DNA of 64,000 nt from Bacteroidota bacterium (lineage in GTDB: Bacteria; Bacteroidota; Bacteroidia; CAIKAF01): positions 3,144 through 67,143 of the forward strand of contig VGMT01000010.1 of assembly GCA_016866335.1 (NCBI GenBank), in the 5' to 3' direction. The position numbers and the translations under genes are program-made. Shown here one piece after another: positions 5,462-41,705 of the stretch. Below the pieces are notes generated by a model. That model did no database searches. It saw only the letters and a program-made list of their open reading frames with translations, and was not told where the DNA came from. The stretch's first letter is position 1. Every line of letters starts with the position of its first letter.

Positions 5462-8400
5462 ATGTCTTCAGGTCACTCTTTCAACCACCTTCATGTTCAT
5501 ACTCAATTCTCTTTGTTGGATGGAGCAGCCGATATTTCAAAGCTGTACGATAAAGCCATTGCCGATGGAATGAAAGGAATGGCCATCACCGACCATGGCA
5601 ACATGTTTGGGGTGTTTAAATTCGTGGCAGAAGCCTGGAAACGCAAAGATGGACAAGGAAATCCCTTAGTTAAACCCATTATTGGTTGCGAGTTTTACGT
5701 GGTTCAAGACCGACACCGCCAAAGTTTTTCCCGAGAAGAAAAAGACATCCGCTACCACCAGCTGATGCTGGCAAAAAACGAGGAAGGGTATCGAAACCTA
5801 TGCAAACTTACCTCCCTTGGCTACATGGAAGGAATGTATGGAAAATACCCCCGAATCGACAAGGAACTCATTCTACAATACCACAAAGGACTTATTGCCA
5901 CCACCTGTTGCCTAGGTGCCGAAGTGCCCAAGGCCATTATGCAAAAAACCGAGGAAGAAGCCGAAGCTGTTTTTAAATGGTGGCTCGATTTGTTCGGAGA
6001 AGATTACTACATCGAAATTCAACGGCATCACATTCCCGACCAAGAAAAAGTAAATGCGGTTCTACTTAAATGGGCCCAAAAATACCAGGTACCCCTCATT
6101 GCTTCGAACGACTCACATTATGTAAACCAACAAGACAGCAATGCCCACGACATTCTACTTTGCATAAACACCGGCGAAAAGAAAAGCACCCCAACCATCA
6201 AGGAGTTTGGCGACGACGATATGATGTCTAAAGGCAAGCGCTTTGCCTTCTACAACGATCAATTTTTCTTTAAAACCGGGCAAGAAATGGGTCAATTGTT
6301 TAAAGACCTGCCCCAGGCCCTGGAACGAACCCAAGAAATTGTCGACAAGGTTGATACACTTAACCTTGAAAAGCAAATTCTGCTTCCCAATTTCCCCATT
6401 CCCGAGGGGTTTGCAAATCAAGATGCTTACCTGCGCCACATTACCTTTAAGGGAGCAAAAGAACGCTACGGAGAAATCAGCGCCGAAGTGGAAGAACGGT
6501 TAAATTTCGAACTGTTCACCGTTGAGCAAATGGGCTTTGCCGGCTATTTTTTGATAGTATCGGATTTTATTGATGCCGGCCGTAAATTGGGCGTACTGAT
6601 TGGCCCCGGTCGGGGTTCTGCCGCCGGTTCGGCCGTGGCGTATTGCATTGGAATCACCAACATAGACCCCATCAAATACGATTTGCTGTTCGAACGTTTC
6701 CTAAACCCCGAACGCAAAAGCATGCCCGATATCGATACCGATTTTGATGATGCCGGACGCCAAAAGGTGATCGATTATGTGGTAGACAAATACGGGAAAA
6801 ACCAGGTCGCTCACATCATTACCTACGGCTCTATGGCCGCAAAAATGAGCATCAAAGACGTAGCTCGAGTCATGGATCTTCCCATTTCTGATTCGAATGC
6901 CCTCTCTAAATTGGTACCTGAAAAACCAGGCATTTCGTTAAAACGGATTCTTAGAGCACCTGAAGACGGGAAAGATGGCCTTAAAGACAACGAAAAACTC
7001 TCGGAAGACGAACTGAAAGGCGTACGCGAATTAAGAAAGCTGCTTTCTACTCCAGGCCTAAACTCCGATATTCTCAAAGAGGCCGAATTGCTGGAAGGAA
7101 GTGTACGGAATACCGGAATCCATGCCGCAGGGATTATCATTGCTCCTAGCGATTTAAACGACCTGATTCCCGTTGCAACGGCAAAGGACACTGATTTGTT
7201 GGTTACCCAATACGACGGATCAATCATCGAAAATGCAGGAGTCATAAAAATGGACTTCCTTGGACTTAAAACCCTGAGCATTCTAAAGTATGCCATTGAA
7301 TTAATCCAAGAAAACCATCGGGTTACTATCGACCTAGACAGCATTCCCCTTGACGACAGCAAAACCTTTGAGCTGTATCAAAAAGGGGAAACCAACGCCA
7401 CATTCCAATTTGAATCGGTGGGAATGCAGAAATACTTGCGTGAGCTAAAACCCGATAAACTTGAAGATTTAATTGCCATGAATGCCCTGTATCGACCAGG
7501 GCCAATTGAATACATTCCGGAATTTGTGGCCAGAAAACACGGCCGAAAATCCATTGTGTACGACCTTCCTGATATGGAAGAATTCCTGAATGAAACCTAT
7601 GGAATTACTGTTTATCAGGAACAGGTTATGCTTTTGTCGCAAAAACTCGCCGGTTTTACCAAAGGCCAGGCCGACACCCTGCGAAAAGCCATGGGGAAAA
7701 AGCAAAAAGCCGTTCTTGACCAACTTAAAGGCCTTTTCATGGAAGGTTGCGAAAAGAACGGTCACCCTGCAAAAGTTTGTGAAAAGGTTTGGACCGATTG
7801 GGAGGCCTTCGCCAGCTATGCCTTCAACAAATCGCATTCAACCTGCTATGCCTACGTAGCCTACCAAACCGCCTATTTAAAAGCCCATTATCCTGCCGAA
7901 TACATGGCCTCGGTGTTGTCAAACAATTTGAGCAACAGCGACAAATTGATTTTCTTCATGGAAGAATGCCGCAGAATGGGCTTAACCATTCTAGGTCCCA
8001 ACGTGAACGAATCCATCACCAACTTTTCGGTAAATGCCAACGGCGAAATCCGTTTTGGCCTAGGCGCCATAAAAAACGTGGGCGAAGCCGCCATGGAAGG
8101 CATCATTCAAGAACGGAAGACCAATGGCCCCTTCAAAGATGTGTTTGATTTTCTGACCCGTGTAAATTTGGGAGCGGTAAATCGCCGAGTAATCGAGAAC
8201 CTTGCCTTGGGTGGAGCCATGGACAGCATCCCCCCTCTGCACCGTGCCCAGTATTTTGAAGAAGAAAACCCAGGAAGCGGCCCCTTTATTGAACGGCTGG
8301 TGCGCTGGGGAACCTCATACCAAAACCAGGTTAAAAATGCAGCTCCTAGCCTATTCGGAGAAACCAATACCACCGAAATAGCCTTTCCCAATCCTCCCGA

Positions 8401-30596: not shown

Positions 30597-30932
30597 ATGA
30601 AAAATTTATGCATCGTTGGATTGCTGTCTTTAAGTTTCGGATTAACCCGTGCCCAAAAGGTGTTTTCGGTTGATTATGAAAACCAAGCCGATGTAAAGGT
30701 GTTTGCCGTCAACTACGAAAACCAAGCCGACCTAAAGGTTTTTAAGGTGAAATATGAAAACCAAGCCGGAAGCAACGACGGTAAATGGTTTTTTACCCAA
30801 TATTCAAACCAGGCAAAAAAGAAGGTGTATTTCGTCAAGTATGAAAACCAAGCCGATTTAAAAATCTATTTTGTTGATTACGAAAATCAAGCCGGTTGGA
30901 GAAATTCAGCGAAAAAACACCTAATGTACTAA
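30597..30932 (+). CDS. secreted repeat protein with six YENQA[DG] units
   Basis: Signal peptide. Repeats [VF]x[VY]ENQADxK[VI][FY] at VDYENQADVKVF, VNYENQADLKVF, VKYENQAGSNDG, TQYSNQAKKKVY, VKYENQADLKIY and VDYENQAGWRNS. Confidence 0.6.
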   Translation: MKNLCIVGLLSLSFGLTRAQKVFSVDYENQADVKVFAVNYENQADLKVFKVKYENQAGSNDGKWFFTQYSNQAKKKVYFVKYENQADLKIYFVDYENQAGWRNSAKKHLMY

Positions 30933-31015
30933 GCTTGGCTTGTTTCTAAATCCCTGCCTAGGTTTGATTTTGGTTTTCCATTCATTCCAATTTGGAATTC
31001 GATGGACGGCAAGAC

Positions 31016-32584
31016 CTAAAATCCCAGAATCACTCTAATTGCTTGGTTCTGGCCTAGCTGTAAAAAATACACTCCCGCAGGCAGGCCTTCCAGGTTTACC
31101 GTTTGGCTTGCTTGCTCTACCCTACCCGATTTCCATTCCCTTCCTAAAGCATCTATCAAACGGTATGTTTGCCCAATAGCCGCTGCCTCTGCATCCAAAA
31201 CAAATCGGTCGGTAGCGGGGTTTGGTGCCACCATTCCCCAAGGTTCCGGCAGCTCGGCCTGCCCCAACCAGCTGTCGGAACATAGGCTTCCGGTTCTGCG
31301 CTCGTCGTACTGAAACATGGCCCATTCGGGACCTTGCCCAGGCCCTAAATCAAAGGCAAAAGCCCTGCCGTAGTTCGACTGAAAGTTGGGGTATTTGGTG
31401 TGTCCTGCAACAATTACGGCGTCCCTGCGGCCATCTCCGTTCAGGTCGCCCACCACCGGAGCCGCGCCCACCTCCATGGTATCGCCATACAAAGCACCCA
31501 GATCCACCACGAACAGCTCTTGCCCTGTGTTGCCCTGCAAACCCACAAAATGCCCGCCGGTAGTTCCAAAAAGTACATCGGGAAGTCCATCGTTGGTTAT
31601 ATCGCTCAAAGCAGCGCCCCGAAAACTGCTGCCATAACCGGGAATGGTGTAAGCCCATTGCTGCTGCCCTAAGGTATTCAAAGCGTACATACGATATCCA
31701 CCGCCAAAAACCAGTTCGCATGACCCATCGCCGTTTAGATCGGCCACCGAAACAGGAGAGCCAACATAGCCTACTGCATCAAAGCTCCATAAAACCGCGC
31801 CTGTACTTCCCTTCAAAGCCCAGAGCCGGCCGCTGTAATCGCCCAGCACCAGGTCAGGAGCGCCATCCGAATCCAAATCGGTAACCGCGGTGCCGTGGTA
31901 CACATAATCGTTCATGGGTGCCGACCAAATGGTTTGCCGAGATACACCATCGAAGGCATACACCCGGCTGCTGTCTGAAAAATTCCAAGTGGCCAAAACA
32001 ATGTCTAATCGCCCATCGGCGTTCAAATCGACCAAGGTGGGAGCGGTTTGCACCCAGGAATTCACATCAACGGCAATTTCCCATTTTACGGCCCCGTTTT
32101 GGGGATTTATGCAGAGCAGGTAACCTCCAAACTGACCGTGCAGCAGTTCCGGCAATCCGTCTCCGTCCACGTCGCCAAGGGTGGGTGGCGAATCGGACCC
32201 GCGGGTAGGTGTAGACCATTTTAATTGTCCGCTGTTGGCATCGAAGCAAAAGGTGGTGGGGTTGCATGAAGAAGCCAAGACCAGGTCCAATTGCCCATCA
32301 CCGTCCACATCGGCCAGCAAGGGAGCGGTATCGTTGCAGCCTTCGGCAAATCCGGCGGCATTGAACGACCAGCGCAAGCTGCCCGAAGAATTTAAGGCAT
32401 ACAGCATGCCGTCGTTTCGGTAGCAGCCAAAAAAAGCCTCGGGCCGTCCGTCTCCGTCCACATCGGCCAAAGCCGTCTGTCCAAAGGCATTGTCTTGGGT
32501 ATCAAAGGTCCAGAGCAAATTGGGGGTTTGGGCAGAAAGACCACTACAGAAAAACAGCGCAAGGCCAACAAAAACAGATTTCAT
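31016..32584 (-). CDS. FG-GAP/VCBS repeat protein with T9SS (type A) C-terminal domain
   Basis: Signal peptide MKSVFVGLALFFCSGLSAQ. Multiple DxDGDGxxD FG-GAP calcium-binding loops. The C-terminal roughly 80 aa (...TYRLIDALGREW...GVYFLQLGQNQAIRVILGF) is typical of the Por/T9SS CTD. Confidence 0.75.
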   Translation of the reverse strand: MKSVFVGLALFFCSGLSAQTPNLLWTFDTQDNAFGQTALADVDGDGRPEAFFGCYRNDGMLYALNSSGSLRWSFNAAGFAEGCNDTAPLLADVDGDGQLDLVLASSCNPTTFCFDANSGQLKWSTPTRGSDSPPTLGDVDGDGLPELLHGQFGGYLLCINPQNGAVKWEIAVDVNSWVQTAPTLVDLNADGRLDIVLATWNFSDSSRVYAFDGVSRQTIWSAPMNDYVYHGTAVTDLDSDGAPDLVLGDYSGRLWALKGSTGAVLWSFDAVGYVGSPVSVADLNGDGSCELVFGGGYRMYALNTLGQQQWAYTIPGYGSSFRGAALSDITNDGLPDVLFGTTGGHFVGLQGNTGQELFVVDLGALYGDTMEVGAAPVVGDLNGDGRRDAVIVAGHTKYPNFQSNYGRAFAFDLGPGQGPEWAMFQYDERRTGSLCSDSWLGQAELPEPWGMVAPNPATDRFVLDAEAAAIGQTYRLIDALGREWKSGRVEQASQTVNLEGLPAGVYFLQLGQNQAIRVILGF

Positions 32585-32741: not shown

Positions 32742-33007
32742 TTTTTTGGGCTTTTCGGGTCGGTTGGGTTTTGGTATTCGGGGTTGCGGCATTCGCGGTC
32801 GCGAGGGGCTACACCCCTCGCTGGGGTATTAAGCCCCTTCAGGGCTTGGCGCCGCCCGCGCCCGGGATCGAGGCGGCATGAAGGCGGTGGCGGGCGCTTG
32901 CCCCCGGACGAGGAGGCGACCAGGGGGAGCCACCGCAGGCCGATGGGGCAAGCAGCCCGGCAGCAACTGAATACAGCTAAGAGCCCGAATTGGCGCCCAA
33001 AAAATCA
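32742..33007 (+). repeat. high-GC intergenic repeat, copy E (longer composite with inverted ends)
   Basis: Begins gttttttgggcttttcgggtcgg (reverse-type end). Contains the hairpin cgaggggctacacccctcg and the core gaggaggcgaccagggggagccaccgca. Ends gagcccgaattggcgcccaaaaaatc (forward-type end). Confidence 0.6.
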
Positions 33008-33060: not shown

Positions 33061-35160
33061 CTACGAAATCATGGACCAGGGGCCCTGGCTGCGCTCCCGG
33101 GCCTGCAAATAGCGCAACAGGTTGGCGTGCTGGGGAGCAAGCAAATCCGGATCGCGCTCTACGATGTGCCAAACCGCCTGCCGAGCCTGCTCCAACACGG
33201 GAGCATCTTCCACCAAACTGGCCAGTTTGAACTGCATTTCTCCGCTCTGCCGAGTTCCCTCTAAATCGCCCGGCCCCCTCAACTCCAAATCCTTCTCGGC
33301 AATCTTGAACCCATCGTTCGTGGCCACCATTACTGCCATGCGCTCACGCGCCTCGGTGCTCAACTGCCTCCCCGTTAGCAAAATGCAGTACGATTGATCG
33401 GCCCCCCGCCCTACCCGACCGCGCAGCTGATGCAGCTGACTCAGGCCGAAACGCTCAGCACTTTCAATCACCATGACCGAGGCATTTGGTACATTCACCC
33501 CCACCTCGATCACCGTGGTTGAAACCAAGACTTTGATGTGCCCTTTCACAAATCGAGCCATGGCGTTTTCTTTGTCGGCCGGCTTCATTTGCCCATGCAG
33601 TACATCGGCCGGAATGTCGGGCAGGTGCTGCTTGAACACCTCGAATCCCTCCAACATGTTTTTGTAGTCCAGCTTTTTCGACTCGTCAATCAGGGGGTAC
33701 ACCAGGTAAATTTGCCGGCCCGCCTCTACCTGCTGCCGAATAAACCGGTACACCTCTAGCCGAACCTCCTCGCCTTTGTGTATGGTTATAACGTTCTTTC
33801 GGCCCGGGGGCAGCTCGTCGATCACCGATACGTCCAAATCGCCGTACAAGGTCATGGCCAAGGTGCGCGGAATGGGTGTGGCTGTCATAACCAAAACATG
33901 GGGAGGCGTAGAACGGGCCTTTTCCCAAAGTCGGGCCCGCTGGGCTACTCCAAACCGATGCTGTTCATCGATGATAGCCATGCCCAGGTTATGGAACTGC
34001 ACCTCTTGCTCCAACAAGGCGTGGGTACCCACCAACAGGGCAATTTCGCCCTGCTGCAAGGCCGTGTGCAGCTTTGTACGCTCGGCCTTTTTGGTGCTGC
34101 CGGTAAGCAACCCTACCCGAATGCCCAGGGGCGCCAAAAGCTGAGATATTCCTAAAAAATGCTGCTGGGCCAGAATTTCGGTGGGCGCCAGCAAGGCGGT
34201 TTGATAGCCGTTGTCATGGGCCATAAGGGCGGTGAGCACGGCCACCACAGTTTTTCCGGATCCCACATCGCCTTGAAGTAGGCGGTTCATTTGCCGGCCC
34301 GATTTTACATCGGCCCGAATTTCTTTCAACACCCGCTTTTGTGCCTGGGTTAAGGTAAAGGGCAGGTGCTGTTCGTAAAAGGTATGAAAGGCCGGCCCCA
34401 ACTGGGGCAAGGGAATACCGGGTTGAGCGGTTTGGTTGCGGGCTTTGGTTTGCAGCATCCGAAACTGGGCCATAAACAGCTCTTCGAACTTAAGCCGAAA
34501 GCGGGCCGATTGCAGGGCCTGGTTGTCGGGCGGAAAATGAATCCAACGGAAAGCTTGGTCGCGGCCAATCAAGCCGTAGCGGCTTAGCACGGCCTCGGGC
34601 AGGTTCTCAGGAATGGGAGCCGGTAAGCCATCGATGATTTGCTTGAGCAATTTGCCAATGCCTTTGGGGTCTAAACCGGCTTTGCGCAGTTTGTCGGAGC
34701 TGGGGTACATGGGGCTTAGGCCCGGTTGCAGCTGCTGCCCCGGCTGCATGATTTCGAAGTCGGGATGCGACATGCCCGGTTGGCCTTTGTAAAAAATGGG
34801 CTTTCCGGCAACAATCAAAACCTGTCCGGGCTTCAGTTTTTCGTCCAGCCAGGCCATGTTGCCGAACCAGGTTAGTTCCATGCTGCCGCTTTTGTCGCGC
34901 AAATGCACGGTAAAGCGTGATTTTCCCTGACCGGGCAGCCATTCTTTGTGTTCAATGGCTCCGATGGACTGGACATAAGGCATGGATTCGCTGATAAGTC
35001 CAATGGGTTGAAACCGGGTGCGGTCTAAGTAGCGAAAGGGAAAATGCGTTAAGGCATCGGCAAAGCTGTGCAGGCCCAAATCTTTGGACAAAAGGGCGGC
35101 CTTGTTGGGTCCGCAGCCCTTTAAGTACGCCAACGATGTAGATAAATAATGACCTTGCAC
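33061..35160 (-). CDS. recG: ATP-dependent DNA helicase RecG
   Basis: 699 aa. Wedge domain plus SF2 helicase motifs (GDVGSGKT, DEQHRFG, TATPIPRT), and the RecG-specific C-terminus. Confidence 0.9.
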   Translation of the reverse strand: MQGHYLSTSLAYLKGCGPNKAALLSKDLGLHSFADALTHFPFRYLDRTRFQPIGLISESMPYVQSIGAIEHKEWLPGQGKSRFTVHLRDKSGSMELTWFGNMAWLDEKLKPGQVLIVAGKPIFYKGQPGMSHPDFEIMQPGQQLQPGLSPMYPSSDKLRKAGLDPKGIGKLLKQIIDGLPAPIPENLPEAVLSRYGLIGRDQAFRWIHFPPDNQALQSARFRLKFEELFMAQFRMLQTKARNQTAQPGIPLPQLGPAFHTFYEQHLPFTLTQAQKRVLKEIRADVKSGRQMNRLLQGDVGSGKTVVAVLTALMAHDNGYQTALLAPTEILAQQHFLGISQLLAPLGIRVGLLTGSTKKAERTKLHTALQQGEIALLVGTHALLEQEVQFHNLGMAIIDEQHRFGVAQRARLWEKARSTPPHVLVMTATPIPRTLAMTLYGDLDVSVIDELPPGRKNVITIHKGEEVRLEVYRFIRQQVEAGRQIYLVYPLIDESKKLDYKNMLEGFEVFKQHLPDIPADVLHGQMKPADKENAMARFVKGHIKVLVSTTVIEVGVNVPNASVMVIESAERFGLSQLHQLRGRVGRGADQSYCILLTGRQLSTEARERMAVMVATNDGFKIAEKDLELRGPGDLEGTRQSGEMQFKLASLVEDAPVLEQARQAVWHIVERDPDLLAPQHANLLRYLQARERSQGPWSMIS

Positions 35161-35238
35161 GAATTTGATACTTGGGCTTGATGGCCGGAAAAAATCAATG
35201 TACCTTGCAGCGATGTACTCGGTATTTTTACAAAGTTA

Positions 35239-36078
35239 ATGGTTTCAGCGTTTATTTTCAGGTGGTCAATGGGGCTTGTGGCTCTGCTAAGTTTTGGGGT
35301 TTTATCGGCCCAAGACACCTTAAGAATTTATTTTAGGTCAGATTCGGCGGTACCCCTGAATGCCGGTGTTTTGAAGGAATGGAAGGAAGTAGGCGGCATG
35401 TTTGAATTGCTGGGGCATACCGACCAAAAGGGCTCGGAGGCCTACAACCTTCGGTTATCAAAGCGGCGCATTGCCGCGGTGCGGGCCTTGCTGCAGCCCC
35501 AAGAGCCAAGCTGGCATGAGGGCAAACACATTACCGAAAGGGCATTTGGTGAGTCTCGGCCGGTATCGCAAAACGATTCCTTAAACCGAAGGGTAGAGAT
35601 TGTGGTGAATAGGCCCGTAGTTGCCCCGCCTCAGGTGTTAAAGCCGCCGCGCAAGGGCTGTCAGGCGCATTTTAGCGGAGGCATTTTGGGGAACTACCCT
35701 TTGCCCGATTATGTAGAAGTTATTTTTGATTCAAATGCCCGCGGCAGCGAATGGGTGGGCGAAGGCGAGTATCCAATCAATCGGTTGGCCTTTCCGAACT
35801 CGGTCGAAAACACCTTTGACGGCATAGCGGCCGACAAAGGCACCCGGGTGATCTTGTATGAGAAGGAACATTTTCAAGGGCGGGTATTGGCCGATTTAGA
35901 GGGGCCTTTTGTATTGACAAACGTAATTTGGGCAGAGCTTTCGGCGATGGAGACGCATGCCTTGAGGGCGCATCCGGTGTTGGATAGTTTGATACCCAGG
36001 AGCCGTAGGCGGTATTCGGCGGAGAACATGCATTCCTGGTCGTTTGGGTCGGTGAAGGTAATTTGTTCGGAACGGTAG
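35239..36078 (+). CDS. OmpA-like domain protein with C-terminal beta/gamma-crystallin-like module
   Basis: Signal peptide. OmpA_C-like peptidoglycan-binding motif LLGHTDQKGSEAYNLRLSKRRIAAVRALL. C-terminal VILYEKEHFQGRVLADLEGPFVL resembles a Greek-key beta/gamma-crystallin motif. Confidence 0.6.
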   Translation: MVSAFIFRWSMGLVALLSFGVLSAQDTLRIYFRSDSAVPLNAGVLKEWKEVGGMFELLGHTDQKGSEAYNLRLSKRRIAAVRALLQPQEPSWHEGKHITERAFGESRPVSQNDSLNRRVEIVVNRPVVAPPQVLKPPRKGCQAHFSGGILGNYPLPDYVEVIFDSNARGSEWVGEGEYPINRLAFPNSVENTFDGIAADKGTRVILYEKEHFQGRVLADLEGPFVLTNVIWAELSAMETHALRAHPVLDSLIPRSRRRYSAENMHSWSFGSVKVICSER

Positions 36079-36106
36079 GGGCAGACCTTGCGTCTGCCCC
36101 TACCCG
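36074..36106. repeat. GC palindromic hairpin unit, left copy of inverted-repeat pair flanking the ATPase gene
   Basis: ggtaggggcagaccttgcgtctgcccctacccg. It is the reverse complement of 37794..37826 over about 30 bp. Confidence 0.8.
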
Positions 36107-36115
36107 CGCCTGCCC

Positions 36116-37582
36116 CTACAGGAATTCTTGGCCATCATTTTGATTCCCCATTTTCAAAACCATGTCGCCTATATTATAGCAATACAAGGCGGCGGGAATG
36201 AATGAAACCGCCACCTCATCAACTGTTTTAATTCCTACACGGTCAATTGAGGTAACCAAAGCGCGCTTAAATTGGTTGACTTTGCAAAAATGGATTAGAC
36301 TTTTCAATTCGTGGGGGTTTTCGTAAAAACGATTGCTCCATTTTACCTCGACACCCCATTGGGGTTTGAAATTTTTGCCGTCCAACAACACAAAATCGAC
36401 TTCACCTTCGATTCTACCTTCCTTCCAACGTGCATAGGTTAAATCAAAATAACCTAAGTGCATCCATTGCGACAATACAATGGTTTCGACCATATTCCCC
36501 ATTTCAGGATCTGTTTCACCAATGGGTGAAAATAAAGCTGAACGCAACGATGGATTGGTTAAATAGACTTTGAAACTGCTAATTCGCTGTAGTCGTTTTG
36601 CTGAGGCATCTACCCTGTTTAATACCCTAATTAAGAATGCCGCTTCCAGGTATTCCAGGTATTTTTTAAGAGTGGCCTTTTGTATTCCACTTTCATTGCT
36701 CATTTTTTCGAACGAAAATTCATTGCCCGTGTTGTAAGCAATGTACAAGAAAAACCGGTTTAACTCCTGTACATCTTTTATACCATACAAACTGGGTAAA
36801 TCTCTTAGTAAAACCTTATCGACAATGTCGTTTTTAACATACCTACCCATATCGCTTTGAATTCGTTCATTCAAAACAATTTCAGGAAATCCACCAAAGT
36901 TCAAGTAATGTAAAAACTCCATGTTTAAGGCCTTTACATCGTGGGACAAAAAGAAAGGAATTTTGTTTTCACCGAGGTTAATATTCCCGGGATACATTAA
37001 ATGACCCCTATCTTTTAAATGAATGTACTCCTTAAAAGTAAGCGGTGGCAGCATAAAATCTGTAAACCTTCCTGCTCCACTTTCTGTACTAAACCATTTC
37101 AATGCTGCGGCTGCCGAACCCGAAACGATAAATTTGGTTTCTGGAAAAGAATCAACCAAAACCTTAAGATGCCGTTCCCAGTCTTTTAGGTATTGTATTT
37201 CATCAAAAAAAACGTAGCAACCTTTTATGCTTTCTTGGTTAACAGCTTGTTTGCATAAATTCAAAATATCTTCCAAACTTAAATTCACATAAATGGGATT
37301 GTCAATACCCACGAAAAATATATTTTTAGGATTCACCTTTTCAGACAACAATTGCTGAATGCTATGAAACAACATAACGGTTTTACCCACCCTTCTTGGC
37401 CCCATTAAAACCAACGCTCTTCTCACCTTATTTTCAACTACAAGTGGATAAAACAAGTCAAAATAAAGCCGTTTTGCCATTGAGCTAAATACTTCGGGTA
37501 TTTGCTTATTGACCCACCAAGGATTTTCATACCGCAAACGTTCTTGTATTTTATAAGATGGAATTAGATTCATAGCAGCCAA
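36116..37582 (-). CDS. AAA+ ATPase, DUF4143-type
   Basis: 488 aa. Walker A LMGPRRVGKTV and Walker B VFFDEIQY. The C-terminal region is typical of the widespread AAA plus DUF4143 ATP-binding protein family. Confidence 0.8.
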   Translation of the reverse strand: MAAMNLIPSYKIQERLRYENPWWVNKQIPEVFSSMAKRLYFDLFYPLVVENKVRRALVLMGPRRVGKTVMLFHSIQQLLSEKVNPKNIFFVGIDNPIYVNLSLEDILNLCKQAVNQESIKGCYVFFDEIQYLKDWERHLKVLVDSFPETKFIVSGSAAAALKWFSTESGAGRFTDFMLPPLTFKEYIHLKDRGHLMYPGNINLGENKIPFFLSHDVKALNMEFLHYLNFGGFPEIVLNERIQSDMGRYVKNDIVDKVLLRDLPSLYGIKDVQELNRFFLYIAYNTGNEFSFEKMSNESGIQKATLKKYLEYLEAAFLIRVLNRVDASAKRLQRISSFKVYLTNPSLRSALFSPIGETDPEMGNMVETIVLSQWMHLGYFDLTYARWKEGRIEGEVDFVLLDGKNFKPQWGVEVKWSNRFYENPHELKSLIHFCKVNQFKRALVTSIDRVGIKTVDEVAVSFIPAALYCYNIGDMVLKMGNQNDGQEFL

Positions 37583-37751
37583 TTAATTGTTTATATCTAC
37601 AAATATAGTTATTTTAAGCACATCGCAACATATCTATTTGTACATTTTTTGTATAAATAAGTCATTTTAGCTCTAAAATGTGATTTATTTATACAGAATA
37701 AATCTAGCCCTTGCTCATTTTCGTGGTTGGCAGCCACGAATGCATAAAAAT

Positions 37752-37826
37752 TGGTGGCTAGGTTGGGGCAGACGCGGGTTGGGGCAGACGCAAGGTAGGG
37801 GCAGACGCAAGGTCTGCCCCTACCCG
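37752..37826. repeat. tandem partial plus complete GC hairpin units (right copy of inverted-repeat pair)
   Basis: ggttggggcagacgcgggttggggcagacgcaaggtaggggcagacgcaaggtctgcccctacccg. Three direct gggcagacgc units, the last forming the full palindrome. The whole cluster is bracketed by the 12-bp inverted repeat agccacgaatgc (37733-37744) / gcattcgtggct (37846-37857). Confidence 0.8.
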
Positions 37827-37884
37827 AAATCATAAATAGTCCAGCATTCGTGGCTAAAATATCCGGGCGTTTGCCAACCAAAAA

Positions 37885-39273
37885 ATGCAGACCTTTGCAA
37901 AAAAACGCGTGCATTCTGAGCATACCATAGCCGCACTTTCTACGCCGCTTGGCGGGGGGATTGCCTTAATTCGGGTAAGCGGTCCCCACAGCTGGACGGC
38001 GGTTAGGCAGTTTTTCAGTCCCATGGGGAAGAAACCTTCTCCCTGGAGCCACCGGCTGGCCCTGGTTGGAAATTGGATGGACGGGGAAGAGGTATTGGAC
38101 CAAGTGGTTCTGCTGCCTTTTAAAGGCCCGAACTCCTTTACCGGCGAAGATTTGGTTGAAATCAGTTTTCATGCTTCGCCCTATGTGGTCGAGCGGGCCT
38201 TGCATCAAATGGCCGGACTTGGCATTCGGCCGGCCCAAGCGGGGGAATTTACCCGTAGGGCATTTATGAACGGTAAAATGGACCTGGCTCAGGCCGAAGC
38301 GGTGGCCGATTTGCTCTCGGCCAGCCACAAAGCCGCCGTGCGCTTGGCCATGCAGCACCTCGGCGGAGCCTTTTCAAACCGCATTGCCCAAATGCGGCTA
38401 GGTCTGCTGGATTTTTGCGCTTTGCTTGAACTGGAACTGGATTTCTCGGAAGAAGACGTTGAATTTGCCTCGCGCAGCGACCTGGCAGAACGCATACAGC
38501 AGATTGAACAGCAAATTCAGGCATTGCTGCAGACCTACAGCATGGGCAGGGCCATAAAGCAAGGCATTCCCGTGGCCATTGTGGGCAGGCCAAATGCGGG
38601 CAAAAGCACCTTGCTGAACGCCTTACTGCAAGAGGAACGGGCCTTGGTATCTGACATTCCCGGCACCACCCGCGATACGGTAGAAGACGAGTTGATTTTA
38701 GAGGGCATTCGGTTTCGGTTTATTGACACAGCGGGAATCCGCGACACCCAAGACCCCATTGAAAAACTGGGCATAGAACGCAGTTTCGATGCCCTGCGCC
38801 GCTCGGGAATGGTCTTGCATTTGGGCGATGCTCAAAGCCAATCGCTGGAAGAGTTTGAGCTGGAAGAGGCTGACTGGAGGGAACGGCTAGGGTTGGAAGA
38901 CAAGCCCATTTTTCGGATTTGGAACAAGATGGATGTGCCTGGGGCACAAAAGCCGGCAGCGGGTGGTATAGCGATTTCGGCGCGGAACGGCGATGGTCTG
39001 GAAGAATTAAAGCAAGCCTTGCTTGATAATCTCGCTGAAATGGGCTACGGCAACCAAGACCTGTTGATTAGTCAGGCCCGGCATAAGGGCTTGTTGGAGC
39101 AGGCTGCCCAAGCATTGGAGCGGGTGCGGCAGCACCTGGAAGCGGGCTACAGCGGCGATCTGCTGGCCTTGGATTTGCGGCAGGCCATGCGTCCGCTGGA
39201 GGAACTTACCGGGCAAATTGGCACGGAAGAAGTGCTGGGGCATATCTTTGGGCGATTTTGCATTGGGAAGTAA
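37885..39273 (+). CDS. mnmE: tRNA modification GTPase MnmE (TrmE)
   Basis: N-terminal TIAALSTPLGGGIALIRVSG. G-domain motifs GRPNAGKST and DTAG. The C-terminus ends in CIGK. Confidence 0.9.
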   Translation: MQTFAKKRVHSEHTIAALSTPLGGGIALIRVSGPHSWTAVRQFFSPMGKKPSPWSHRLALVGNWMDGEEVLDQVVLLPFKGPNSFTGEDLVEISFHASPYVVERALHQMAGLGIRPAQAGEFTRRAFMNGKMDLAQAEAVADLLSASHKAAVRLAMQHLGGAFSNRIAQMRLGLLDFCALLELELDFSEEDVEFASRSDLAERIQQIEQQIQALLQTYSMGRAIKQGIPVAIVGRPNAGKSTLLNALLQEERALVSDIPGTTRDTVEDELILEGIRFRFIDTAGIRDTQDPIEKLGIERSFDALRRSGMVLHLGDAQSQSLEEFELEEADWRERLGLEDKPIFRIWNKMDVPGAQKPAAGGIAISARNGDGLEELKQALLDNLAEMGYGNQDLLISQARHKGLLEQAAQALERVRQHLEAGYSGDLLALDLRQAMRPLEELTGQIGTEEVLGHIFGRFCIGK

Positions 39274-39627
39274 AGGCATACCTGCGCAAATGCCTACCCG
39301 CCTGAACTGTGCAGGCAGAATGCGAGCGGTTTACTTGAAGGTAAGCCGAATATCTTAATAGCGATTTGTTAAGCAAATTATGCGCCAAAAACGCTGACAA
39401 TGCACGCTTGGATAGAAGATGACCAATCCCTAGTTTTTGAAGTATGAAACCCAAAGGAATGAACTTATGCCATAGTTATCTTGCCTTTATCGGGCTACCT
39501 AGGAATTTTAGGTGGTTGCCACTTGAGAATAAAATCATTTGAGGCGAAGCCCATAAATCAATAAACAAAATAACGTGTCATAAAAAGGATAAAAAAACGT
39601 ATATTTGTCCTTTATAAGACAAGTTAA

Positions 39628-39948
39628 ATGAAAACAACCCCTGCTATATTGCCTAAAAACATGAAGATTTTAAAAGATCTGGGTGAGCATATACAGTTAG
39701 CTCGCTTGCGCCGAAAATTGAGTGCAGAGCAAATGGCTGAGCGCGCGGGACTAGGCAGAAAAACGATTTATAATATAGAACAAGGCAGCCCAACTGTTGC
39801 CATTGGAAGGTATTTACAGGTGCTCTTTGTATTGGGATTAGAGAAAGATTTAACCCAAGTTGCAGCCGCAGACCCTTTGGGCCGAAAACTGCAAGATGCC
39901 GGAATCATTACCCATAAGCGTGCACCCAAACAAAACAAAAAGTCATGA
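39628..39948 (+). CDS. XRE-family helix-turn-helix transcriptional regulator
   Basis: HTH LSAEQMAERAGLGRKTIYNIEQG. 106 aa; an internal Met at 39661 is an alternative start. Confidence 0.65.
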   Translation: MKTTPAILPKNMKILKDLGEHIQLARLRRKLSAEQMAERAGLGRKTIYNIEQGSPTVAIGRYLQVLFVLGLEKDLTQVAAADPLGRKLQDAGIITHKRAPKQNKKS

Positions 39949-40129
39949 AGGACATGAAATTTGGAATCAGGAATGGCGAGATTGAACAATTGAAGCCTGC
40001 GTTTCGGTTGGTGGTTCATGCCTAGGTGTAAAAAATGAAACAACTACCATTCCTCTGCGGGTATTTCCCTCGGGGCATGTAGCCATTGCAAAAACCTCCG
40101 GAGCTTAAAGGTCCGGATGGGTTCTGCTG

Positions 40130-41424
40130 TTAATTCGGGACGACCAACCGAAAGCCCCAGTCGTTGGTGCGGTAGGAAGGAAAGCCGGCGCCGCGGCCAG
40201 CCGAGCGGCAAGCCGCGCTGTAGGCGCGCCAGCCGCCCCCACGCAGAACCCGATCCGACCCCGATGATGGACCTTCGGGGTTGGTTTGGGCACCGCTGGA
40301 ATAACCTCCATACCAATCGCTGCACCACTCCCAAACATTACCGTGCATATCGTACAAGCCCCAGGCATTGGGAGCATAGGAGCCCGCGGGCTGGGGTTTT
40401 CCAAGGAATGTTCCTTGTGCGCAGGTGGAATAGGGATAATTGCCATCGTAATTCGCCTCGCTGCTGCTTAAGCAGCTTCCCGTATTGAAGGGGCTTGTGG
40501 TTCCTGCCCGGCAAGCGTATTCCCATTCCGCCTCGGTTGGCAGCCGGCAGCCCATCCATTGGGCAAAGGCCGTGGCGTCGTTCCAATCTACATTAATTAC
40601 TGGCCTATTGCCACGCCCCCACCCTTCATCAGATGGCTTTGTTCTTCCCGTAGCATCGCAAAAGGCGTCGTACTGAGCAAAAGTCACCTCCAACTTGCTC
40701 ATTTTAAACCCGCTTAAAGTCACCGAATGCTGGGGGCCTTCGTTGCTTCCCCGGTCGGATTCAAAACTTGGGCTGCCCATCGTAAAGGTTCCGGCGGGGA
40801 TTGAAACCCATTGAATGATTGGGAAGATAGGATCTATTCCAACAGAAAAGTTTTTAGACCCGTAATTGTTTTGGGAATCATAAACAGTTAAACTGTAATT
40901 CCCAGGCAGTAAGTTGAAGATATTTGGTCCTGTACCTCCGTTTGACCAAGCATATGTATATGGCGGCACACCTCCGTTTACTATTGCGGTGGCAGTGCCA
41001 TCAGCGGTGTAAGGTGTACTGGCTACTGTCGAGTTAACCTGAATGGCTAAAATATTCCCACCTGACAAAACTCCAATTTCAAACGACACCGAGTCTATAA
41101 CTCCGATTGCATCTACAACAACAACATTGTAAAAACCAGGCAACAGGTTGAATCTTAACGAATCTGAGCCACCACCATTTGACCATTGATATACATAGGG
41201 TGGACTCCCCCCCCCTTCACCTGAATAATTGCCTGTCCATTTGCTATACCAAGGCCTGAAGCATCAACCTTAGAAACCGATATAGACAAGACGGAATCTG
41301 GATTAAAACAAGTCCAATTTAGTAAGTTAAATAAAAAAACTACGGACAGTAAACCATAATAATTTCGAGAAAACAAACCCGAATTTTGTTTGACTCTTGA
41401 AGGTGAATTATTAAAAATCTTCAT
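40130..41424 (-). pseudogene. SprB-repeat / formylglycine-generating-enzyme (FGE-sulfatase, SUMF1-like) domain surface protein, frameshifted at a G9 homopolymer
   Basis: Track ORFs 41155..41424 (signal peptide, then ...IIQVKGGGVHP*) and 40130..41143 (SprB repeat GGVPPYTYAWSNGG, then FGE domain ...GFRLV). Removing one G from the G9 run (coding strand; C9 on plus at 41207-41215) reads KGGSPPYVYQWSNGGGSDSLRFNLLPGFYNVVVVDAIG, a perfect SprB repeat continuous with the downstream ORF. Confidence 0.7.
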
Positions 41425-41631
41425 AAATTATGCTATCCATCGTTCTACAAAATTAAATCAGAATACAGTTTAAAAGCAAACCCTATTTTTAATTAACTTA
41501 AAGGTACTCTTTTTTGTACTGCCTTTGCATTATTGTTGTACATGCAGGCATTACCGAATTTTTTCTGCTGTGTCAAGACATCAAAAGCCACACGACACCA
41601 CTAAGAATTAGGGTGCTGTGTTTTGAGGTTG

Positions 41632-41705
41632 TGATCCCATCAGGATTCGAACCTGAGACCTACTGCTTAGAAGGCAGTTGCTCTATCCAGCTGAGCTATG
41701 GGACC
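41632..41705 (-). tRNA. tRNA-Arg (anticodon TCT)
   Basis: Reverse complement GGTCCCATAGCTCAGCTGGATAGAGCAACTGCCTTCTAAGCAGTAGGTCTCAGGTTCGAATCCTGATGGGATCA; anticodon loop CTTCTAA. Confidence 0.85.

Follow-up and report, generated by a model that had tools for sequence, protein, structure and literature searches.

A low-GC gene for a DUF4143 ATPase, located between an OmpA-like gene and mnmE in a Bacteroidota contig, is enclosed by two hairpins that are exact reverse complements of each other. A first-pass annotation had read this arrangement as a cassette, either a mobilised passenger gene with REP- or TIR-like ends or an invertible segment, raising the question whether the hairpins move or switch the gene or arrived there independently of it. 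We analysed the locus within a stretch of 64,000 nucleotides (64 kb, the window) and in comparison with related loci. The following features are involved:

35239-36078, plus strand: OmpA-like gene (open reading frame list; Pfam OmpA, 9.8e-8)
36074-36104, no strand assigned: left double-foot REP hairpin, GGTAGGGGCAGAC / loop CTTGC (36087-36091) / GTCTGCCCCTACC
36106-36119, minus strand: extra REP 3' half-unit GCGCCTGCCCCTAC, reading GTAGGGGCAGGCGC on the minus strand
36116-37573, minus strand: AAA_14 and DUF4143 ATPase gene, 485 amino acids from the ATG at 37573 (Pfam AAA_14, 4.7e-30; DUF4143, 1.2e-25)
37574-37760, minus strand: AT-rich ATPase promoter region and native spacer (upstream homology to the relative L143 reaches 37652)
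37761-37793, plus strand: pair of REP half-units GGTTGGGGCAGACGC in tandem, at 37761-37775 and 37777-37791, inward of the right hairpin
37794-37824, no strand assigned: right double-foot REP hairpin, GGTAGGGGCAGAC / loop GCAAG (37807-37811) / GTCTGCCCCTACC
37885-39273, plus strand: mnmE (trmE), the right-hand neighbour, conserved in all related loci (Pfam MnmE_helical, 2.9e-54; TrmE_N, 1.4e-34)

Repeat analysis of the window confirmed the perfect inverted pair round the ATPase gene, with arms of 31 nt that are 100% complementary and a spacer of 1,689 nt between the two hairpins. Each hairpin is self-complementary and the two differ in loop orientation, as had been described; the stem, however, comprises 13 bp and not 9 bp, and it carries a 5-nt loop. 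Folded as single-stranded DNA, the hairpins reach -16 to -20 kcal/mol (z about -6). Extra half-units make the ends longer than the 33-bp unit proposed before: on the left, one 3' half-unit is added to the hairpin, and on the right the hairpin is preceded by two half-units. Together with the half-units, the imperfect inverted repeat spans about 46 nt (35 nt at 91% in the repeat analysis). The inner half-units are headed by GTTG and not by GT[AG]G. On the left side, the REP and its half-unit occupy the entire spacer between the convergent OmpA-like and ATPase genes. The hairpin does not start 1 bp after the OmpA-like stop codon but contains it, the TAG at 36076-36078 being that of the GTAG foot, and the ATPase stop codon, said to lie 10 bp beyond the hairpin, is the TAG of the further half-unit (36116-36118). 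The low GC content is likewise not limited to the 5' region of the ATPase gene; the whole gene has 34-40% GC, compared to 52-58% in the flanks.

By their sequence, the hairpins are double-foot REPs (5' GTAG, 3' CTAC) cognate to the Y1 (HUH) transposases of TnpA_REP subclass 2.4, in line with the REP-like ends suggested earlier; the definition of a double-foot REP was taken from PMC6006769. The foot GGTAG-GGGCAGAC is present on both strands of both copies, its 3' mirror, of the C[TC]AC type, reads ...GTCTGCCCC-TACC, and the stem base is GGGG/CCCC, giving at least three G-C pairs. The pattern GGGGCAGAC-N3-8-GTCTGCCCCWAC was detected at 120 loci or more in at least 15 phyla, where about three matches are estimated by chance on uniform composition. 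The 139 hairpins among the matches listed are strongly polar, with a GTA foot and a C...T loop or the complement; 68 are in F and 49 in R orientation, and 20 are double-foot. Short F-R doublets among these matches, found in Acidobacteriota, have spacers of 22-37 nt and feet pointing outward. At about ten loci among the matches listed, the hairpin is located in frame inside open reading frames of RAYT-like Y1 transposases, which match Pfam Y1_Tnp and NCBIfam REP_Tyr_transpos (4e-16) and carry the motifs NH[IFV]H, WQ and YIxNNP of subclass 2.4. Such reading frames with the same stem and foot are present in L026, L117, L046, L106 and others, all of them genomes other than the source of the window.

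REPs within tnpA_REP genes and double-foot REPs were described for subclass 2.4 by Quentin, Siguier, Chandler and Fichant (2018, PMC6006769), who found the subclass in Cyanobacteria, Bacteroidetes and scattered other phyla. The hairpins studied here resemble this subclass, and the GTAG-tagged REP super-family, in both feet and the stem base, in the identical stem GGGGCAGAC inside Y1 transposase genes, in their occurrence in Bacteroidetes and many other phyla, in a foot that provides TAG stops and in copies of opposite orientation. They differ in their low copy number in the window (one locus in 64 kb, with no tnpA_REP gene), in the 5-nt loop CTTGC as opposed to the common 6-nt CYRYGT, in the extra tandem half-units with GTTG heads and in the distance of 1.7 kb between the copies, with a gene in between. 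GTAG termini of REPs are a known source of TAG stops (Di Nocera et al., 2013, PMC3733652), and the left REP cluster supplies those of both convergent genes, as is the case in 10 other loci among the matches listed; at this locus, a REP has overwritten the stops of a convergent gene pair. Between divergent genes, where the right hairpin is located, a REP is atypically placed.

Within the window, GGGGCAGAC occurs seven times (0.52 expected), and six of these occurrences fall on the hairpin-ATPase locus, where all REP sequences, two full copies and three half-units, are found. No further GC-rich hairpins of REP type were detected elsewhere in the 64 kb, and tblastn detected no RAYT gene in the window. 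Repetitiveness of the element in its source genome and a cognate transposase there are thus unproven from the window, which offers one locus and no RAYT. An Rfam scan of positions 35000-39000 returned matches with E-values at chance level only, and a literature search with the hairpin sequence string gave primer coincidences only.

The related loci allowed the relative age of gene and hairpins to be estimated. L143, with about 80% identity, contains the ATPase gene in the same RecG-OmpA-ATPase-MnmE synteny with a hairpin on neither side, and the P0002 lineage (13 contigs) likewise has the ATPase in this synteny and no hairpins. Loci L077, L141 and L142 (91-94% identity) carry the left REP with loop CTTGC at the orthologous site and no ATPase gene; the right hairpin is missing from these three and from L143. 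Judged by the shared synteny of the 80% relative, which has the ATPase without hairpins, the ATPase is the older resident of the locus. Conservation in the ATPase family is high, with 75% nucleotide identity still found in Pedobacter; the 82.7% identity of the ATPase to its L143 counterpart is thus no proof of vertical descent on its own, and the synteny carries most of the weight. Homologues with about 80% amino-acid identity are present at other loci of other Bacteroidota, without hairpins. In L143, a locus free of REPs, the OmpA-like gene ends with ...ICSEGE* and a different stop codon, and the C-terminus of the ATPase is five codons shorter in the window than in the L143 orthologue.

The upstream region of the ATPase gene appears to be native. 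Homology to other Bacteroidota extends upstream to 37607-37652, a putative Bacteroidetes-type TAnnTTTG box (TATATTTG, 37600-37607, minus strand) is located in the promoter region, and an AT-rich inverted repeat (37647-37664 and 37681-37698) is present further upstream. The motif GGCAGCCACGAATGCA (37729-37744) is common to the window and L077 in 16 of 16 positions. From this motif on, L077 reads GGCAGCCACGAATGCA-11 nt-GGCTA-TATTATCC and the window GGCAGCCACGAATGCA-11 nt-GGCTA-(96 nt)-AAATATCC, which outlines a further feature:

37754-37856, plus strand: possible 96-nt insertion (37761-37856) with the right REP cluster, bordered by the 7-nt direct repeat GTGGCTA (37754-37760 and 37850-37856)

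The right REP cluster may have been brought in by this insertion, as suggested by the single comparison to L077. We also considered whether the 245-bp spacer of L077 derives from the 3' end of the ATPase gene; local alignments scored like those of shuffled sequences, except for 14-16-nt GCCACGAATGC motifs, and no consistent model was obtained in which a simple inversion via these motifs links the spacers of L077 and the window.

The comparison of related loci for an empty site, proposed with the first reading, yielded a clear result. Sister strain L140, with 98-99% identity to the window, lacks exactly the hairpin-to-hairpin segment and keeps a single hairpin, whose loop is GCAAG, that of the right copy:

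36087-37806, no strand assigned: segment missing in L140, 1,720 bp (36074-37793 is equivalent, with a crossover anywhere in the shared 13-nt 5' arm)

L140 corresponds to the window up to 36086 joined to the window from 37807 on, with 8 SNPs in 627 nt, all of them more than about 40 nt away from the hairpin. An assembly artefact was rejected, as L140 has SNPs of its own and the filled allele does not contain the k-mer joining the OmpA 3' end, the 5' arm and the GCAAG loop. The polymorphism is most readily explained by a deletion in L140, not by an insertion in the window, because the ATPase synteny exists in the outgroup, because the loop next to the OmpA-like gene, GCAAG in L140, is CTTGC in the window and the outgroups alike, and because L140 lacks the native GGCAGCCACGAATGCA that the window has in common with L077.

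We consider it likely that REPs settled round an older ATPase gene and that L140 represents ordinary repeat-mediated gene loss, not a new cassette or switch. According to this account, the low-GC ATPase gene would have had the OmpA-like gene and mnmE as its neighbours already in the ancestor shared with the 80% relative. A REP would then have colonised the short convergent spacer, giving both genes their TAG stops and probably serving as the 3'-end hairpin of both mRNAs. Later, a second REP cluster, probably a local copy of the left REP, would have entered the divergent spacer between the ATPase gene and mnmE in the opposite orientation, in the lineage of the window and L140 only. As perfect palindromes, the two REPs form a direct repeat (13-nt arms) as well as an inverted one, and a crossover or replication slip between the 5' arms may have deleted the 1,720 bp in L140, comprising the ATPase gene, its promoter and all inner half-units, and left a single hairpin with the loop of the right copy. 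The REPs mark the precise loss of the ATPase and are probably its cause. A length of 13 nt is short for RecA-dependent recombination, and for this reason the mechanism of the deletion is a guess. Further points go against the account: two low-copy REPs are unlikely to reach adjacent spacers by chance, a 7-nt direct repeat like that round the right cluster is not expected from an HUH transposase, and the heads of the inner half-units are GTTG.

Enzymatic mobility offers a different explanation, in which the REPs bound a giant REPIN, a RAYT or TnpA_REP protein recognises the outward GTAG feet and excises or inserts the 1.7-kb unit, and L140 is an unoccupied target or an excision footprint. The feet do point outward, as in the short doublets of Acidobacteriota, the hairpins belong to a family with a cognate Y1 transposase, and the filled and empty alleles differ by exactly one hairpin-to-hairpin unit. 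HUH enzymes, such as those of IS200/IS605, seal donor sites precisely, as this explanation would have it. However, the annotation had itself named relatives with the ATPase at the same locus and no flanking hairpins as the observation that would speak against a cassette, and L143 and the P0002 lineage are such relatives. The left REP is older than the right one, being the only one in L077, L141 and L142; a second copy of the unit was found nowhere, ATPase homologues elsewhere are free of REPs, and a phmmer comparison detected no DUF4143 ATPase adjoining the hairpin at other loci among the matches listed. The absence of a RAYT gene from the 64 kb and a spacer far beyond the known range of REPINs also disfavour mobility. 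What stands of the cassette is a discrete hairpin-to-hairpin segment, while the hairpins as a vehicle of the ATPase do not, and we regard a REP-bounded mobile cassette as unlikely. Quite improbable, too, is the specific version in which the outward double-foot pair is a working substrate of a subclass 2.4 TnpA_REP and the L140 allele its enzymatic excision footprint (a macro-REPIN). If it were true, REP pairs could mobilise or expel cargo the size of a gene, in this case a candidate defence ATPase, and REP/RAYT systems would take part in accessory gene turnover. Known mobile elements resemble the locus in part. REPINs (Bertels and Rainey, 2011, PMC3116915) and BIME clusters also comprise two inverted REPs with outward feet, but the REPIN spacers measure tens of nucleotides and REPINs replicate as a whole, whereas here 1,689 nt with an older resident gene separate the REPs and the unit was found at this locus only. 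IS200/IS605 elements share hairpin ends of the type recognised by Y1 HUH enzymes and the lack of a target duplication round the whole unit, the outer flanks here being GAAC and CGAA; in contrast, both of their ends have the hairpin on the same strand and they encode TnpA, whereas the hairpins studied here are inverted and enclose an ATPase. A TIR transposon or MITE does not fit a locus with no flank duplication, an ATPase as cargo, an empty site that keeps a full hairpin and an ATPase that is older.

A phase-variable switch would require that the 31-nt inverted repeats recombine and flip the ATPase gene and its promoter relative to the neighbours. The perfect repeat does enclose the gene with its own promoter, and Logan contigs (k=31) break exactly at the hairpins; such breaks are, however, the expected outcome of a 31-nt inverted repeat at k=31. 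More than 20 assembled contigs that cross a junction, taken from JGI and ENA and from at least 12 samples, all have the segment in one orientation, with no inversion isomer among them. The called neighbours, covering about 10 kb towards mnmE and about 4 kb towards recG, include no recombinase or invertase gene, and there is no obvious regulatory gain, because the ATPase gene carries its own promoter. The invertible segment proposed earlier is therefore extremely improbable. The hairpins could also be plain host structures, with the left copy a bidirectional terminator, the right copy an unrelated operator or insulator and the likeness to REPs a coincidence. The left copy lies between convergent stop codons, where such a terminator is expected, and both hairpins are stable on folding. 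Nevertheless, stem and foot are identical to those of a cross-phylum family embedded in RAYT genes, and both genes are intact in L143, which has no hairpins. Neither hairpin is followed by the T/U run of a Rho-independent terminator (tails TACCCGCGCC and CCGAAATC), and the intrinsic terminator scan called neither of them. For the right copy, located between divergent genes, this agrees with the annotation, which had seen no terminator there; judging from the conserved promoter blocks, this copy would lie outside both transcription units. We consider plain host hairpins very unlikely. An integron attC site was rejected since the hairpin is too short and the copies have the wrong relative orientation, and a CRISPR repeat or iteron since there is no regularly spaced array and the half-units are plainly REP arms.

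Loss of a gene between REPs has a precedent in Neisseria meningitidis, where recombination between REP clusters deleted porA (van der Ende et al., 1999, PMC96602, as presented in PMC3352162). The loss in L140 parallels this case: as far as the case is presented there, a REP-flanked accessory or surface gene was lost in some strains with breakpoints in the REPs. The repeats differ from that account, as those in the window are single 31-nt palindromes with 13 nt of direct homology and the product is an intact hairpin with a swapped loop. The filled and empty alleles, at 98-99% identity, constitute a natural before-and-after pair, and they indicate that two perfectly palindromic REPs can eliminate the gene they enclose, collapsing into one double-foot REP. 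Such a collapse was proposed by Quentin et al. (PMC6006769) as the origin of double-foot REPs. The hairpins are a known kind of selfish repeat, and no new mobility mechanism is revealed; the main value for a genome scan is that the cassette reading of the hairpin-ATPase locus can be closed.

The ATPase gene is an accessory gene and a candidate defence gene, with a PADLOC match to PDC-S01 (1e-59). Its exact protein, starting at the ATG at 37573, is encoded in 11 contigs, and a look-up of the exact protein with the TTG start gave no match. A decayed related REP is located 3' of the mnmE stop codon. The REP family occurs here in a freshwater Bacteroidota lineage, the relatives of which are labelled Saprospiraceae or Flavobacteriales in their source records.

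The inverted hairpin pair that the first-pass annotation had placed around the ATPase gene is real. An inverted-repeat search (I2) returned 31-nt arms at 36074-36104 and 37794-37824 that are 100% complementary, and each arm is itself a hairpin (I7, I8) in which a 13-bp stem, GGTAGGGGCAGAC/GTCTGCCCCTACC, closes a loop of 5 nt, CTTGC in the left copy and GCAAG in the right. Folded as single-stranded DNA, the hairpins have energies of about -17 to -20 kcal/mol, with a z of about -6. The window contains seven copies of the 9-mer GGGGCAGAC, where 0.52 would be expected, six of the seven at the hairpin locus, and two separate palindrome scans of the 64 kb detected no further GC-rich hairpin of this type. 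Both ends exceed the ~30-33 bp first described, since additional copies of the hairpin's 3' half on the inner side of both ends extend the terminal inverted repeat, imperfectly, to ~46 nt (I1: 35 nt, 91%).

Half-units and the enclosed gene
36106-36119: extra half-unit at the left end, GCGCCTGCCCCTAC, one copy
37761-37775 and 37777-37791: extra half-units at the right end, GGTTGGGGCAGACGC, two copies
36116-37573, minus strand: AAA_14 + DUF4143 ATPase gene (Pfam), 485 aa from ATG

REP feet have captured the stop codons of both convergent genes. The OmpA-like stop TAG (36076-36078) lies within the GTAG foot of the left hairpin, and the ATPase gene, on the minus strand, stops at the TAG of the left extra half-unit (36116-36118); both genes therefore end in the repeat, and the whole 37-nt spacer is repeat sequence. 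The left REP (repetitive extragenic palindrome) has no T-tract, was not called by the terminator scan and probably serves both mRNAs as their 3'-end hairpin. The right REP belongs to neither transcription unit and has the look of a purely selfish element. Around the right REP cluster there is a perfect 12-nt inverted repeat (37732-37743/37844-37855); its motif, (TTA/GGC)AGCCACGAATGC(A), recurs in the OmpA-mnmE spacer of the clade, with direct copies in the related contig L077 (6863-6877, 6950-6965).

The pattern GGGGCAGAC-N3-8-GTCTGCCCCWAC was scanned across 185,579 species genomes and matched at least 120 loci, with about 3 chance matches estimated under uniform base composition. According to record titles, the matches listed include Acidobacteriota, Chloroflexota, Cyanobacteria, Firmicutes, Verrucomicrobia, Planctomycetes, Armatimonadota, Desulfobacterota, Patescibacteria and others, as well as Bacteroidota, among them Saprospiraceae and Flavobacteriales MAGs; the family is high-copy in Acidobacteriota, because many of the loci listed come from each of several genomes. 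The 139 hairpins in these matches show a strong polarity, GTA preceding stems with a C..T loop (typically CTGCGT, CTGTGT or CTATGT) and TAC following those with the complement loop (68 forward, 49 reverse, 20 with both feet). Within the same set, 28 of 133 oriented hairpins follow a co-oriented ORF by no more than 40 nt, and the foot TAG is the ORF's stop in 10 of those 28. At about ten of the loci listed, an ORF of the form ...MPNHIHGII...VGADLRVCP...QWFKTMTTNEYIR...WQRNYYEHIIR...YIxNNP contains the hairpin in frame; these ORFs match Pfam Y1_Tnp, with the NCBIfam REP-associated tyrosine transposase (RAYT) as best match (4e-16). TnpA_REP subclass 2.4 is defined by the motifs NH[IFV]H, WQ and YIxNNP and is plentiful among Cyanobacteria and Bacteroidetes and scattered over phyla; in-frame REPs inserted within the tnpA_REP gene and "double-foot" REPs (5' GT[AG]G + 3' C[TC]AC) have been reported (Quentin et al., 2018, PMC6006769). 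Judging from sequence, the window hairpins are double-foot REPs of the family associated with this already described system, with which they share GTAG/CTAC feet, and the left REP is like the GTAG REPs whose termini often provide the TAG stop of flanking ORFs (Di Nocera et al., 2013, PMC3733652). No Rfam family matched the hairpin. Tight doublets of the same hairpin, one forward and one reverse, feet outward, with 22-37 nt spacers in a REPIN-like layout, occur in Acidobacteriota (L020, L030, L066, L069, L075, L112, L116, L128).

A genome scan, together with one metagenome scan that used the OmpA-like protein, supplied five related loci (L143, L077, L141, L142 and L140).

Alleles of the locus in related contigs (nucleotide identity to the window)
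L143 and the P0002 lineage of 13 contigs (outgroup): about 80%; ATPase present, RecG-OmpA-ATPase-MnmE synteny; no hairpin on either side
L077, L141, L142 (closer relatives): 91-94%; ATPase absent; left REP only
L140 (sister strain): 98-99%; ATPase absent; one hairpin, loop GCAAG

Between the outgroup and window ATPase genes, nucleotide identity is 82.7% and amino-acid identity 83%, homology reaches 80 nt into the AT-rich region upstream, and in the outgroup the GGGGCAGAC hairpin is absent from both sides of the gene. The OmpA-like and ATPase C-termini are slightly longer there, each with its own stop codon. Comparison with related genomes, to which the first-pass annotation had looked for a decision, thus finds the ATPase at the same locus without flanking hairpins, and the gene is therefore older at the locus than the hairpins. 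In the intermediates L077, L141 and L142 the left REP is kept after the OmpA-like stop, with the loop CTTGC as in the window, and beyond it come a tandem array of the 9-mer GTCTGCCCC, variable in length, and a ~245-bp spacer; the right REP is absent from all three. Including the hairpin's own 3' arm, GTCTGCCCC is present in 5 copies in L077 (6777-6821), 10 in L141 (5351-5431) and 1 in L142 (3666-3673). The window has amplified another unit, of 16-17 nt; extra 3' half-arms also lie beside REPs in other phyla (L038, L053, L087, L098, L121). Together these cases suggest a recurrent slippage process linked to the hairpin.

L140 equals the window minus exactly 1,720 bp, a precise hairpin-to-hairpin deletion (36087-37806, or any register in the common 13-nt arm), and its lone hairpin is the junction between the OmpA-like stop and the right-hand flank of the window. 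The two differ by 8 SNPs in 627 nt, none of them within about 40 nt of the hairpin. The filled allele cannot have given rise to L140 as a de Bruijn graph artefact: it has no copy of the L140 junction k-mer (OmpA 3' end + arm + GCAAG), and L140 carries SNPs of its own. Three independent lines mark L140 as a deletion derivative and not an ancestral target: the ATPase occurs in the same synteny in the outgroup; the loop next to the OmpA-like gene reads CTTGC in outgroups and window, GCAAG in L140; and the native spacer motif GGCAGCCACGAATGCA (37729-37744), which matches at 16/16 positions between window and L077, is missing from L140. One alignment, with L077, suggests that the right REP cluster may have entered the native spacer as a ~96-nt insertion, bounded by GTGGCTA repeats (37754-37760 and 37850-37856). 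Once the L143 lineage had split off, a REP would have colonised the convergent OmpA-like/ATPase spacer, and the window/L140 lineage would have gained a second, inverted copy of local origin. A pair of perfect palindromes is simultaneously an inverted and a direct repeat, and the interval would have been deleted between the 13-nt 5' arms by crossover, single-strand annealing or replication slip, possibly aided by hairpin extrusion. A precedent is porA of Neisseria, a gene deleted by recombination between REP clusters (van der Ende, 1999, as cited in PMC3352162).

Enzymatic excision or insertion of the whole REP-ATPase-REP unit by a RAYT, as a macro-REPIN, is unlikely and has no positive support: the unit was found nowhere else, the left REP is older than the right, the ATPase is older than both, and no RAYT gene is present in the 64-kb window. 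The first-pass annotation had also considered an invertible segment, in which the ATPase interval flips between the hairpins. This is likewise unsupported, as more than 20 contigs carry a single orientation and no recombinase was found nearby. Logan contig ends do fall exactly in the hairpins (L009, L010, L017-L019, L161-L163), but contig breaks at k=31 are expected from a 31-nt inverted repeat, and they are therefore a technical effect and not evidence of rearrangement. A purely regulatory origin of the hairpins is contradicted by the identity of their sequence across phyla and by their absence from L143. What survives of the proposed cassette are its REP ends and a discrete interval that can be deleted, as in L140; the hairpins as vehicle of the gene do not, given the outgroup. 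Nor is the segment a switch, and the locus is another example of known REP biology, of modest interest.

One further REP and a possible second one lie nearby. An older REP of the same super-family directly follows the mnmE stop (window ~39270-39300, L143 8665-8692, L140 ~5632-5660). In L143 it is intact, with a half-arm in addition (ATAG GGGCATAC CTACGT GTATGCCC), whereas the window copy has decayed (AGGCATAC CTGCGC AAATGCCT); it shows apparent REP turnover at gene 3' ends in the clade. Another GC hairpin, GCGAGGGG ctaca CCCCTCGC, at 32801-32821, ~240 nt past the recG stop (L140 816-840), is preceded by GTA in L140, giving a GTAG foot, and may be a different REP variant.

PDC-S01, a candidate defence family of PADLOC, matches the ATPase at 1e-59, and DUF4143 is assigned to the PD-(D/E)XK superfamily (PMC3424549). 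GC content is 34-40% over the entire gene versus 52-58% in the flanks. OmpA-like, mnmE, recG and HTH genes lie around it. The identical protein was found in 11 contigs (JGI Ga0194xxx samples, ENA, Logan), with the same arrangement in 11/11. Relatives number in the thousands, many at 78-83% amino-acid identity, in Saprospiraceae, Flavobacteriales, Sphingobacteriales (Pedobacter yonginense), Brumimicrobium and Bacteroidales. The gene occupies different loci in Pedobacter, Brumimicrobium and another Saprospiraceae lineage, with low GC everywhere and no REP bracketing it. In the homologue contigs L147, L148 and L150 (2930-4449), compared with window 36116-37652, it is always solitary, low in GC and at a different locus, and nucleotide homology covers only the CDS plus 30-80 nt of promoter. 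Conversely, a DUF4143 ATPase adjoins the hairpin at 0 of the at least 120 REP loci listed. By this distribution, REPs and ATPase are independent entities that meet only at the window locus, and the ATPase looks like a frequently transferred single gene without a visible vehicle.

Upstream of the ATPase promoter lies an AT-rich 18-nt inverted repeat (37647-37664/37681-37698, 89% complementary), a possible operator; similar ...TATAAATAA... blocks precede ATPase homologues in other genomes. More low-GC patches occur near the locus (30600-31050, 39300-40000 and 41100-41700; 31-42% versus about 55%), one of them the HTH/hipB gene, and suggest that accessory genes gather in a small hot spot around mnmE. 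A hipA polymorphism lies 2 kb away (window 39950-40025 versus L140 6360-7637): in L140 the HTH (HipB-like) gene is followed by an intact gene for a HipA toxin of 425 aa (Pfam HipA_C, 1.6e-52), whereas a ~1.25-kb deletion has left the window with the ~25 last hipA codons. The strains thus differ reciprocally, the window being ATPase+/hipA- and L140 ATPase-/hipA+.
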